From: a virus
DNA length: 39,374 nucleotides
Virus genome (UHGV): UHGV-0391889
Reading direction: 5' to 3' (one strand)
Positions 2,515 to 17,870 of the stretch are shown one piece after another; position 1 is the first letter of the stretch; every line of letters begins with the position of its first letter. Position numbers and translations under genes: made by a program. A model generated the notes under the pieces. That model searched no databases, was not told the origin of the DNA, and saw only the letters and a program-made list of their open reading frames with translations.

Positions 2515-2703
2515 TCACGAGGACAGAAGTTTCTCGCAATTAAAATTTATCAGCTTTACTTTCTGCTCTCTGGACACGCCTGCTTCTTTTTTCCCTGAGA
2601 GCATTTTTTCGCATTCTGATTTCGTTAATTTAGATTTTGAATATCTTGTCCAGTTAGTAGGAGTGCCACCTTCTTTTTCAATAGTGGCAGTTATTTTATA
2701 CAT
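2515..2703 (-). CDS. YdaC-like small protein of unknown function
   Basis: Start at MYKITAT with a GGAGG RBS 5 nt upstream; sits between xis and ralR as in Rac. Confidence 0.5.
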   Translation of the reverse strand: MYKITATIEKEGGTPTNWTRYSKSKLTKSECEKMLSGKKEAGVSREQKVKLINFNCEKLLSS

Positions 2704-8009: not shown

Positions 8010-8254
8010 CTTTTTTCCCCTTAACGCCGGGTGGCGGAACGTTTTATCTACTGCGCTTTGTATCAATCAACAACTGCCGTCATGTTCGTATGCCTCAGGC
8101 TGGCTACTTAGCCCTGTTCAGTGGCTGGATAACTCGAGGTATTGTCCAGCCGTTCTCTGGTGGGGCGTTGTTTGGATATGGCAAATGCTCACATATCGTG
8201 AGTGATTTGTCAACTCAATATGTGAGCACTGTTGTTTTTGGATTTTTGATGGAC

Positions 8255-8313: not shown

Positions 8314-8703
8314 TTAGGAGGATTTTTTCTGTTGCCTGCTTCTTAGATATTTTTCCACATACTCATCAAGCTCTTGAAGACGGATTTCGAACAGATCAAT
8401 CATGCGTGCTTGTTCTGATCCCGGGAGCTGATTAAACAGCTCTAGCATTTTTTTCTGGTTATCATTTAACCATGAGTACGTGTTTTCCTGTTCACCGAAC
8501 ATTAATTCTGCGGGGGAAATGCCTAGTACTTGGCCGAGGATGATCGCATCCTCAGCCCCCACACTCCTGGTGCCAGCTTCGTAGTTAGCAATACGAGAAG
8601 AACCTGACCAACCACATAGTTTTGCCAGGTTTCCCATACTTAATCCTCGATTTAGGCGAGTGGCTTTTAGGCGCTCGCCTATTTGTTCTGCAATCGTTTT
8701 CAT
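8314..8703 (-). CDS. CI-like phage repressor, HTH XRE family
   Basis: 129 aa from MKTIAEQIGERLK...; HTH segment LSMGNLAKLCGWSGSSRIANYE; divergent from a Cro-like gene; the longer track ORF 8314-8808 would run across the operator region. Confidence 0.8.
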   Translation of the reverse strand: MKTIAEQIGERLKATRLNRGLSMGNLAKLCGWSGSSRIANYEAGTRSVGAEDAIILGQVLGISPAELMFGEQENTYSWLNDNQKKMLELFNQLPGSEQARMIDLFEIRLQELDEYVEKYLRSRQQKKSS

Positions 8704-8797
8704 AGTTCCGATTTTATCACGATGTGTGAAATTGGCGGTACTCACGTATCTGTAGTTGATCTCGCTCACGAAATGTGAATAATAGAGACAGGAGGTA
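8704..8797. promoter_or_regulatory. Divergent immunity-region promoters with three operator-like TCAC-N5-GTGA sites
   Basis: TCACgatgtGTGA at 8717-8729, TCACgtatcTGTA at 8742-8754, TCACgaaatGTGA at 8766-8778, spaced about 24-25 bp, between the repressor and cro-like starts. Confidence 0.55.
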
Positions 8798-14677: not shown

Positions 14678-14769
14678 AAACGGTTTGCGGGAAAAGGAGA
14701 GTTAAGTAGAATTGCTGCGGGTGCTTGAGGCTATCTGCCTCGGGCATGAACACCAACGGCAGATAGAGA

Positions 14770-14838
14770 AAAGCCCCAGTTAACATTACGCGTCCGGCAA
14801 GACGCTTAACATTAATCTGAGGCCATATCTATGCGACA
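14770..14838 (-). ncRNA. Candidate Sok-like antisense RNA
   Basis: Minus-strand promoter-like TTGACC (14868-14873) and TAATCT (14844-14849) with 18 nt spacing, facing into the hok leader; minus-strand hairpin then T-run near 14770. Positions approximate. Confidence 0.3.
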
Positions 14839-14890
14839 CATAGAGATTAGCCTCTTACGGACCGAAAGGTCAAGGAGAAGCAGGCTATGA
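14831..14890 (+). CDS. Mok-like leader ORF (19 aa)
   Basis: Short ORF whose stop overlaps the hok start (ATGA). Confidence 0.4.
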   Translation: MRHIEISLLRTERSRRSRL

Positions 14891-15042
14891 AGCAGCAAAA
14901 GGCGATGTTAATCGCCCTGATCGTCATCTGTTTAACCGTCATAGTGACGGCACTGGTAACGAGGAAAGACCTCTGCGAGGTACGAATCCGAACCGGCCAG
15001 ACGGAGGTCGCTGTCTTCACAGCTTACGAACCTGAGGAGTAA
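14887..15042 (+). CDS. hok: Hok/Gef family type I toxin (HokD/RelF-like)
   Basis: 51 aa MKQQKAMLIALIVICLTVIVTALVTRKDLCEVRIRTGQTEVAVFTAYEPEE: N-terminal TM helix and conserved Cys, as recalled for E. coli HokD. Confidence 0.85.
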   Translation: MKQQKAMLIALIVICLTVIVTALVTRKDLCEVRIRTGQTEVAVFTAYEPEE

Positions 15043-15111
15043 GAGACCAGGCGAGGGAGAAATCCCTCGCCACCTCTGATGTGTCAGGCATCCTCAACGC
15101 ACCCGCACTTA

Positions 15112-15132
15112 ACCCGCTTCGGCGGGTTTTTT
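15112..15132 (+). terminator. Rho-independent terminator after hok
   Basis: CCCGC-ttcg-GCGGG followed by TTTTTT; a second hairpin (GGCGAGGGA/TCCCTCGCC, 15046-15070) lies directly after the stop. Confidence 0.6.
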
Positions 15133-15317
15133 GTTGCGCGCTGAATACGCAGGGTGAAAAATAACCATATATTTGATTATATACACAACAAAAAATAAAA
15201 GTCATTGTACCTGCACATTAAACAATCAAATATACGGCGTGAAATAAATATTTTTCAGATTAATATTTTTGTCTCTATGTGGATATAACCGTTTGTACTT
15301 ATAAACCTGGAGGCATC

Positions 15318-15530
15318 GTGGAAAAAATAAAGAAACTATTTAGTAGCAAATATGCAGTCATACGTCGTGATGACCTGTCAGTTATAGTCGAAATGGATTA
15401 CTTCCCTGAAACAAAAAAATCAATGATGTATCGTAATGGTCGAAAGGCAATTTTTTTACCGATGAGGGTAAGTGACATTATGGGAAATGATAAACTGCAG
15501 GATGAATTGCGAGTCAGAGCATCCTGTTAG
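15318..15530 (+). CDS. Hypothetical small protein in an AT-rich island (GTG start)
   Basis: GGAGG RBS 4 nt upstream of a GTG; sits in a markedly AT-rich segment (about 15140-15320). Confidence 0.35.
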   Translation: MEKIKKLFSSKYAVIRRDDLSVIVEMDYFPETKKSMMYRNGRKAIFLPMRVSDIMGNDKLQDELRVRASC

Positions 15531-15545
15531 TATTGGCATTAATTC

Positions 15546-15554
15546 TGGTATACT
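15546..15554 (+). promoter_or_regulatory. Extended -10 element TGGTATACT upstream of the nin-like operon
   Basis: Same TGGTATACT motif as at 7588-7596, about 48 nt upstream of the 15602 start. Confidence 0.3.
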
Positions 15555-15601
15555 ACATAACGGGCTGAACACCCATTCTACTGCGCCAGCGGAGAACTAC
15601 G

Positions 15602-16201
15602 ATGGCGCATATACAACTGGTCAAACAAACCTCTTCTGGATTACTTCTCCCGGCGACGCCGGAGAGTTGCGATTTTTTGCATCAAATCAAAATAGGTGAG
15701 TGGATACACGCGGACTTTAAGCGAGTACGTAACTACGCGTTCCACAAGCGTTTTTTCAAACTCCTGCAACTGGGATTCGATTACTGGACTCCGAACGGTG
15801 GGGCGATCACGCCTCGCGAACGAGAACTGGTGTCCGGTTTCGTTGATTTCCTGTGCGAATCAGTAGGTCGGGAACATACGCCAGCCCTGAGTGATGCCGC
15901 AGAGCAATACCTTAACACCGTTGCGACTTGCAGAACCCGGGATACGGCCTTACTCAAGTCCTTTGACGCTTTTCGCGAATGGGTAACCATTCAGGCCGGA
16001 TTTTACACCGAACATTTTTATCCGGACGGTAGTCGTGGGCGCAGGGCAAAATCTATCGCATTTGCGAACATGGACGAAACCGAGTTTCAGCAGGTTTATA
16101 AATCTGTACTTAATGTGCTGTGGAACTGGATCCTGTTCCGTAAATTTTCCTCTCCGGAGGAAGTCGAAAATGTGGCCGCGCAGTTACTGGAGTTTGCGTA
16201 A
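15602..16201 (+). CDS. Nin-region protein, YdfU-like (DUF1367-type)
   Basis: 199 aa ORF with a GGAGAA RBS; position and recalled family membership. Confidence 0.6.
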   Translation: MAHIQLVKQTSSGLLLPATPESCDFLHQIKIGEWIHADFKRVRNYAFHKRFFKLLQLGFDYWTPNGGAITPRERELVSGFVDFLCESVGREHTPALSDAAEQYLNTVATCRTRDTALLKSFDAFREWVTIQAGFYTEHFYPDGSRGRRAKSIAFANMDETEFQQVYKSVLNVLWNWILFRKFSSPEEVENVAAQLLEFA

Positions 16202-17042: not shown

Positions 17043-17068
17043 CTCAATCTGTTATCCGGGGCTATATT
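17039..17068 (+). promoter_or_regulatory. pR'-like late promoter
   Basis: TTGACT at 17039-17044, 18-nt spacer, TATATT at 17063-17068; overlaps the Q stop codon. Confidence 0.5.
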
Positions 17069-17128
17069 CCTCACGCGCCAGCAAAATCTGGCGTCGGGAT
17101 TGGAACCCCGGATAGAGACCGCGACAGA

Positions 17129-17152
17129 CACACGCCGCGAGCGTGTTTTTTA
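17129..17152 (+). terminator. tR'-like rho-independent terminator
   Basis: ACACGC-cgcga-GCGTGT followed by TTTTTT, about 60 nt downstream of the candidate late promoter. Confidence 0.6.
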
Positions 17153-17312
17153 TTGTCGTATGCACGCGCACATCTGAATTATGGTGGGGCGCATGGGGGA
17201 GCTGAAAAGCTCGCCGGTCGGTTTCCCGGTAGTTCCAACCCTGTGCGTCTCACCACCCGATGATTGGAACCTGACGGTGGTGATAGTTTAGAAACCACCA
17301 GAGGGCGTCATT

Positions 17313-17870
17313 ATGACAACTCAAATTTCTGTTGAAACTCTCTCCCCGATCACCCATAACCGGATTCCTGTTATTACCACCGAACTTTTGGCGCAGCTTT
17401 ACGGCACTGAGCCGGTGCGTATTCGCCAGAATCATCATGAGAACAAAGTACGCTTCGTTGAAGGGAAACACTTTTTCAAAGTTGTTGGTAATGACCTTAA
17501 AGAATTGCGGGTAGCTTTAAACTACTCACAAAATCCCATCTCTCCCAAAGCCCGCTCCCTTATCCTCTGGACAGAACGCGGAGCAGCCCGCCACGCAAAA
17601 ATGCTCGAAACCGATCAGGCGTGGGATGTGTTCGAAAAACTGGAAGACTGCTATTTCAGTCAAAAGGATCCGTCAACGCCAGTTTCATGCCAGAAAAGTT
17701 ACGACACGCGAGTTCTCTGTTATCAGCGAGGCGGTGTCACTGTTTCCACAATTCAGTTACGGGATGATGATATTGTTATTTCCCTTGAGTCATGGCTGGA
17801 ACTGGCGAGAGCCAATGGTTGGTTTGTTGTTCGCAGAGATAAACTGGTGGAAAGGTTGATGCAGCTTTAA
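17313..17870 (+). CDS. ORF6N-domain protein (antirepressor-like / KilA-N-related)
   Basis: 185 aa; N-terminal region resembles the ORF6N fold as recalled; GAGGG RBS. Confidence 0.55.
   Translation: MTTQISVETLSPITHNRIPVITTELLAQLYGTEPVRIRQNHHENKVRFVEGKHFFKVVGNDLKELRVALNYSQNPISPKARSLILWTERGAARHAKMLETDQAWDVFEKLEDCYFSQKDPSTPVSCQKSYDTRVLCYQRGGVTVSTIQLRDDDIVISLESWLELARANGWFVVRRDKLVERLMQL

Follow-up and report, generated by a model that had tools for sequence, protein, structure and literature searches.

The window, that is, the whole stretch of 39,374 nt (39 kb) analyzed here, was recognized as a lambdoid, Gifsy/Rac-like E. coli prophage. From the left, its map runs from the integrase through RalR/RalA and recET to a short CI-like repressor on the minus strand, which is followed by cro-like and YdaT-like genes, the replication genes, hok/sok, and an AT-rich island with a small open reading frame (ORF). 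Downstream of the ORF lie DUF1367, DUF1364/YbcO, a Q-like antiterminator, the isrK/C4 RNAs with an ORF6N Ant-like gene, and, at the right end, the lysis and morphogenesis genes. Table 1 summarizes the features around the ORF. In the region downstream of Q (17062-17870), matches to c4-a1b1, isrK, and C4 antisense RNA precede the ORF6N (Ant-like) gene; this layout is the Gifsy-1-type IsrK/AnrP arrangement and represents a second antirepressor-like module within the same prophage.

Table 1. Positions of the features discussed in the text
Feature	Position	Strand	Remarks
RalR/RalA	2519-2697		Rfam match
129-aa CI-like repressor, putative target	8314..8703	-	HTH_3/HTH_31 only, no S24 peptidase domain
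sok	14719-14889		Rfam match
hok	14887-15042
Intrinsic terminator of hok	15111..15135	+	Stem-loop 15111-15128 and T run; 7-bp stem, 5 GC pairs
AT-rich leader	15136..15308		About 31% G+C; in place of the relatives' LexA-box promoter (with or without dinI)
Leftward promoter-like element ATGACT-N18-TATAAT	15176..15205	-	Promoter scan
Weak rightward promoter candidate TTAATA-N18-TATAAC	15260..15289	+	Lacks the -7 T; below scan threshold; inferred from sequence
Shine-Dalgarno sequence (SD), GGAGG	15309..15313	+	4 nt before GTG
ORF, 70 codons	15318-15530	+	GTG at 15318; stop TAG 15528-15530
Extended -10-like box TGgTATACT	15546..15554	+	Upstream of DUF1367; candidate
Junction hairpin AACGGG-CUGAACA-CCCAUU	15559..15577	+	Between the antirepressor gene and irsA; right cassette boundary
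irsA homologue (DUF1367)	15602..16201	+	PF07105, E 4e-97; conserved downstream partner gene

An earlier note on this DNA had described a 70-codon ORF with a GTG start and a good GGAGG ribosome-binding site, and both were found as described, including the start coordinate. The identical CDS is annotated in RefSeq as WP_000411373.1, "hypothetical protein". When the ORF was compared with alleles of 80%, 71%, and 55% identity, dN/dS values of 0.24, 0.23, and 0.15 were obtained, respectively, and the reading frame was intact in 85/86 loci. Therefore, it was concluded that the ORF is a real protein gene under purifying selection. A longer in-frame start, GTG at 15279 (83 aa), was rejected, as it has no SD and is mutated in some alleles, while the GTG at 15318 is always kept. 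The ORF contains two homopolymer runs, A7 at 15413-15419 and T7 at 15451-15457; the protein clusters P0014, P0017, and P0018 are frameshifted at the T run, which reflects either sequencing errors or slippage-prone sites.

The claim of about 180 bp of strongly AT-rich sequence before the ORF, differing in composition from the surrounding genes, was borne out quantitatively. The G+C content of 15136-15317 was 31.3%, compared with 49.5% for the window, and that of the ORF was 36.6%, compared with 51.9% for hok and 49.7% for DUF1367. In the sliding-window analysis, only 0.76% of all 182-bp windows were equally low, and the lowest of the 39 kb (26.4% G+C) started at 15157, within the leader. The leader was found only together with the 70-aa gene; a search for it in other contexts yielded one phage record, which carries the same gene. 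In two IMG/VR loci (L115 and L121), an IS1 element interrupts the leader about 48 nt ahead of the GTG, equivalent to window positions of about 15268-15270, and takes away everything upstream of the TATAAC box. A phage record, PP818812.1 (L002), is named "Actinobacillus phage vB_Apl-pPE4" and attributed to Actinobacillus pleuropneumoniae, yet it is 98% identical to this E. coli prophage region, hok and DUF1367 included, and the host assignment looks doubtful.

The earlier note had also listed several TTGnnn/TAnnnT combinations in the island and suggested that the cargo has its own promoter. These combinations occurred at the level of chance: the promoter scan returned 2 sites, compared with 1.8 expected from shuffled sequences, and both were on the minus strand. 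In the island, no plus-strand sigma-70 match exceeded the scan threshold, and the LexA-controlled promoter of the relatives is absent; the claim of an own promoter was thus not upheld. In the leftward element, which is directed into the 3' end of hok, the hexamers and the 18-nt spacing of ATGAC[T/A]-N18-TA[T/C]AAT were kept in 76/83 loci of the window type, and they were also kept in the diverged upstream types of L182 and L076 despite the changed spacer sequence. A terminator search found none 3' of the ORF.

LexA sites were searched for with a position weight matrix (PWM) built from 35 distinct boxes, under which true sites score 20.9-33.7 bits. There was no CTG-N10-CAG anywhere in the island, and the best PWM score was -5.8 bits in the island and 2.9 bits in the whole window. 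As even the best score is far under that of true boxes, the prophage has no LexA site in the 39 kb available. A possible remnant of a LexA box, TTGTACTTATAAACCTG (15291-15307), matches the core of the Brenneria box at 11/12 positions, but it was ruled out, with both the CTG and CAG triplets mutated, the spacing to the start 9 nt off, and a PWM score of -11.5 bits. Control by the prophage's own repressor was rejected as well, since no TCAC-N5-GTGA operator lies in the island and such sites occur only at 8189, 8717, and 8766.

The leader and the ORF together form a discrete cassette extending from about 15130 to about 15555. Among 5426 complete E. coli genomes, 4695 matched the query, while the whole segment was present in only 173, which include O55:H7, O145, and other STEC backgrounds. 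Most of the matching genomes share only the first ~86 nt, i.e., the 3' end of hok and its terminator. Alignment with prophages holding other inserts placed the left break at about 15129-15135, just after the terminator stem, and the right break at about 15545-15560, immediately before the conserved junction sequence. The hok terminator is therefore the left boundary of the cassette, where homology to most E. coli prophages ends. In other prophages, the site is taken either by rem (L003) or by an AT-rich filler of ~400 bp that has no annotated gene (L004 and L005). Accordingly, the suggestion of horizontally acquired cargo held in part: the segment is a swappable mosaic cassette carried by 173/5426 genomes, but it is not cargo in the sense of a moron, because its ORF is homologous to the GfoA-type antirepressor gene, which belongs to the regulatory core of phages, and occupies the canonical slot of that gene upstream of irsA/DUF1367. 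Two further observations concern the left edge. The terminator (AACCCGCTTCGGCGGGTTTTTTG) is nearly identical to the one preceding the LexA box and dinI in Gifsy-2 (L013 10976-11002), and the sequences upstream of the two terminators are unrelated, so that the terminator appears to be a shared junction element. Moreover, a look-alike of the junction hairpin, GCG-CUGAAUA-CGC, is found at 15138-15150.

A homology search of the 70-aa product, which the earlier note had suggested as a check, returned phrog_1813 (function unknown) with an E value of 4e-32. Sequence searches of Pfam, NCBIfam, PADLOC, and PDB gave nothing useful; an NCBIfam match to YjbM (E 0.004; 17 bits against a cut-off of 320 bits) and a match to the BTK SH3 domain (E 0.09) were taken as chance. 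The structure search returned no match either supporting or contradicting an antirepressor assignment. A word-indexed search gave only 19 close clusters, whereas two successive profile searches, the first of them over 1.84 billion representatives, gave about 288 clusters of 70-85-aa proteins from Enterobacterales prophages. Their hosts include Citrobacter, Enterobacter, Klebsiella, Leclercia, Dickeya, and Brenneria, among others, and all are annotated as hypothetical. The family shares the motif (G)YxVIRCxD..VA...FP..ERxLMYRxG..vsFmPL..DEIiGTP.L...L.RAGY.

To compare the family with GfoA, the GfoA sequence was retrieved from IMG/VR through matches to pp866, the primer published for its cloning. 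It reads (M)SNSALQKSEDSWYDIVRRSDGCVVFSFPSSGRHLIYRVNGMVSMRPLLDDEEVFTPNGFMHFIRRLGYRVTPPSDNMKSTA with a TTG or GTG start, and the 3' primer pp867 matches its C-terminal ...RVTPPSD. Alignment of the family profile (A2, with the window protein as first row) with GfoA by hhalign gave a probability of 98.1% and an E value of 7.8e-14 over 75 columns, and direct BLASTP to GfoA gave an E value of 4e-5. On this profile evidence, the ORF product is a diverged, previously unlabelled E. coli homologue of GfoA/GfhA, the small antirepressors of Salmonella Gifsy-1/-3. The GTG start to which the earlier note drew attention is present but not peculiar to this gene. Among 64 distinct family proteins, 49 start with GTG, 13 with TTG, and 2 with ATG; as 62/64 have a non-ATG start, the GTG start is a conserved family trait, which presumably limits how much of a dangerous protein is made.

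The surroundings of the gene were compared across the family in a survey of 184 loci, whose contigs were profile-scanned with the A5 alignment, and a LexA-like box was sought within 700 bp upstream in 83 loci of the window type and 91 loci of other subfamilies. Outside the window-type clade, such a box was present in 90/91 loci. In the GfoA type, the box was found in 53/53 loci, dinI upstream in 54/57, and DUF1367 downstream in 55/57; in the 81-aa (P0054-like) type, the box was found in 28/29 and dinI upstream in 25/29. The Dickeya/Brenneria type had boxes in 6/6 loci, mostly 12-16 nt before the GTG, and the E. coli P0011 type in 3/3, 29 nt upstream. In Citrobacter, the family gene comes after a dinI homologue, and in Dickeya and Brenneria it lies directly upstream of DUF1367 or NinB, with perfect LexA boxes before the GTG. 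This pattern of dinI, LexA box, and DUF1367 around the relatives matches the published signature of the Gifsy antirepressor operon, in which a terminator, a LexA box, dinI, the antirepressor gene with a GUG start, and irsA follow one another (Lemire et al. 2011, PMC3121763).

In the case of the window type, a LexA-like box was reported in 1/83 loci, and this sole box was a poor match 554 bp away and spurious, leaving real boxes in 0/83. dinI was present in 0/86 loci, hok lay directly upstream in 67/86, and DUF1367 directly downstream in 82/86; that is, hok/sok, the terminator, and the AT-rich leader stand where the relatives have the LexA box and dinI. Judged from these sequences, the window-type clade is not wired to the SOS response, unlike nearly all of its relatives.

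On its right side, the cassette adjoins a junction that is shared with the Gifsy prophages. The order of terminator, antirepressor gene, junction hairpin, and irsA/DUF1367 is common to the window, Gifsy-2, and the GfoA loci, and irsA of Gifsy-2 (STM1020, 200 aa) is a DUF1367 homologue with the same junction sequence before ATGGCGCA. In the window, DUF1367 starts 72 nt past the stop codon of the ORF, and the slot is separate from the immunity region and comes after the replication genes. The junction hairpin has an invariant loop, CUGAAC, and a covarying 5-bp stem, with 92% of the cells of the alignment paired. Compensatory changes were found in 4/5 pairs, and the covariation score was 0.69, compared with 0.25 in shuffles (0/500 reached 0.69). 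The hairpin had no match in Rfam. Copies of it occur in E. coli, Salmonella, Citrobacter, Dickeya, and Brenneria as well as in the rem cassette, and the stop codon TGA of GfoA coincides with the TGA of its loop. The TGnTATACT box lies 7 nt upstream of the hairpin, and only its "n" varies among loci of the window type (G, T, or A); the box may serve the DUF1367-YbcO-Q operon as a promoter. Furthermore, an inverted repeat, UGCGCCA...UGGCGCA, surrounds the SD and AUG of DUF1367 at 15582-15609, is invariant in all loci examined, and could act as a translational-control stem.

The putative target of the ORF product is the 129-aa repressor of the same prophage, which shares 30-43% identity with its counterparts from GfoA-family loci in Salmonella, Dickeya, and Brenneria. 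TCAC-N5-GTGA palindromes were found at 8189-8201, 8717-8729, and 8766-8778, which is 3 compared with 0.6 expected by chance; those at 8717 and 8766, between the repressor and cro genes, probably serve as operators for this repressor. Two E. coli prophages, L073 and L074, encode a repressor identical to it at 129/129 residues. At the same site, with hok, the terminator, and DUF1367 in the same order, they hold the P0011 allele, which shares 71-76% identity with the window ORF and has a near-consensus LexA box, TACTGTATATAATTACAGTG, in front of it. One and the same repressor is thus paired with an allele that has a LexA box or with one that lacks it, which argues for functional equivalence of the two alleles, with a swap of the regulatory input only. 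In turn, the window-type allele, whose copies share at least 93% identity across loci, occurs beside at least three types of repressor, which are 60%, 84%, and 100% identical to the present one. GfoA and GfhA each act on both GfoR and GfhR, which are 66% similar (PMC3121763). The association with several repressor types fits such GfoA-like cross-reactivity, and it also fits a function unrelated to the repressor.

Compared with known systems, the window locus is closest to GfoA/GfhA. Besides the profile homology, it shares with them the small size of the protein (70 vs 82 aa), the non-ATG start, the slot, which follows a terminator and directly precedes irsA/DUF1367 and the same junction hairpin, and a prophage background that combines recET and an isrK/C4-Ant module with a short CI-like repressor of the non-cleavable kind. 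However, the identity is only ~17-33%, the C-terminal RAGYRV tail is replaced by RASC in the window protein, and hok/sok and the AT-rich leader take the place of the LexA box and dinI. GftA of Gifsy-2 has the same position, a GTG start (reported as GUG for gftA by Lemire et al. 2011, PMC3121763), and a similar size, but hhalign detected no significant similarity to the window protein.

Rem of the Qin prophage is likewise a small, LexA-independent protein, and in E. coli prophages its gene fills the slot that the window gene has, with the hok terminator on one side and the junction hairpin on the other. It relieves DicA repression 165-fold, by a route whose trigger is not known (Ragunathan et al. 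2023, PMC10448788). Unlike the window protein (PHROG 1813), Rem belongs to PHROG 340 and Pfam PF27490, and its cassette is not AT-rich. BLASTP gave no alignment between Rem and the window protein; hhalign of the two family profiles gave an alignment that was colinear over 65 columns at a non-significant score (E 0.007, probability 5.5%). A Buttiauxella protein (L109) combines a GfoA-type N-terminus (E 2e-18) with a Rem-type C-terminus (E 6.5e-13), which is a sign either of remote homology or of interchangeable halves. FsoA of Fels-1 provides a precedent for an antirepressor outside LexA control (PMC3121763); it differs in lying in the left operon under the Fels-1 repressor, whereas the island has no operator of the window's repressor. 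Tum of coliphage 186 (146 aa, with a DinI-like half) and AntC of N15 are also small proteins that inactivate a non-cleavable repressor, but both are larger and under LexA control and, as far as tested, have no sequence relationship to the window protein.

Considering the observed homology, synteny, start-codon trait, purifying selection, lack of a LexA box, and repressor type, we regard it as likely that the ORF encodes a GfoA/GfhA-family antirepressor of the 129-aa repressor under an input other than SOS. By analogy with GfoA, we infer that its product would bind this short non-cleavable repressor and take it off its operators, whereby the early operons would be derepressed, while the non-ATG start would keep translation low. 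The equivalence of slots also speaks for an antirepressor, as the slot in Qin holds rem, an experimentally shown DicA antirepressor (PMC10448788); the low identity to GfoA, the non-significant similarity to GftA and Rem, the absence of the defining LexA box and dinI, and the lack of a convincing plus-strand promoter speak against it. As the LexA box and dinI are replaced by hok/sok, the terminator, and the 180-bp AT-rich leader, synthesis would have to come from one of two sources. The first would be antiterminated read-through of the early rightward transcript, so that the antirepressor would serve as a feed-forward lock once induction has begun. The second would be a weak or silenced promoter in the leader that answers some other signal. 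These two sources are favored by the strong terminator before the leader, the absence of one after the ORF, the absence of an operator for the prophage's own repressor, and the weakness of the promoter candidate.

The same loss of the LexA box and dinI might instead mean that the gene is a retired antirepressor, a silent remnant that is carried along with irsA after losing its LexA-controlled promoter and no longer plays a part. A remnant would suit the fact that H-NS typically silences AT-rich DNA, the frameshift at the T7 run in some database entries, and the IS1 in the leader of two loci. However, the dN/dS of 0.15-0.24, the intact ORF, SD, and GTG in 85/86 loci of many lineages, and three diverged LexA-less alleles (window, L076, and L182 types) that are all in frame make such a fate unlikely.

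The atypical composition and the sharp cassette boundaries could also be those of a moron, that is, accessory cargo acquired with its own promoter and serving a host or defense function in the lysogen that is unrelated to induction. In favor of a moron, alternative inserts make the site a hot spot, and the same allele is found with several immunity types. Yet the homology of the protein is to a phage regulatory antirepressor, its slot is conserved across genera, it has no PADLOC or Pfam match, no terminator follows the ORF, and the promoter matches do not exceed chance; we therefore consider a moron quite improbable. That the key feature is instead the leftward promoter (15205->15176), giving an RNA antisense to the 3' end of the hok mRNA or a divergent regulatory transcript, is very unlikely despite an element conserved in 76/83 loci whose hexamers and spacing outlast spacer divergence (L182 and L076), because AT-rich DNA is expected to give promoter-like matches, no terminator lies in the leftward direction, and no Rfam family matches the site, and such a promoter would in any case be compatible with an antirepressor.

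Within the preferred reading of a GfoA/GfhA-family antirepressor, we propose only tentatively, and with more doubt than belief, that this widespread E. coli clade was rewired from SOS to another input carried by the AT-rich leader. This input may be relief of H-NS silencing, a temperature or host-niche signal, or antisense braking by the conserved leftward promoter. If such rewiring is true, these prophages, and possibly co-resident ones through cross-talk in trans, would be induced by cues other than DNA damage.

Small antirepressors set the time at which Gifsy-type prophages wake and are able to act in trans on co-resident prophages. The present gene is annotated everywhere as a hypothetical protein and has no Pfam family. 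Through its kinship with GfoA, it becomes a candidate, open to testing, for the switch that induces prophages with non-cleavable repressors, a common class in E. coli and Shigella. The two natural cassettes, in which the same repressor occurs with and without a LexA box, provide a system for studying the modular exchange of induction inputs and a route to the signal that replaces SOS, a question shared with Rem. In the prophages with the LexA-boxed allele (L073-L075), genes for pertussis-like toxin subunits (Pertussis_S1 and S2S3; ArtAB-like) were found about 4 kb downstream of the antirepressor allele, after Q.
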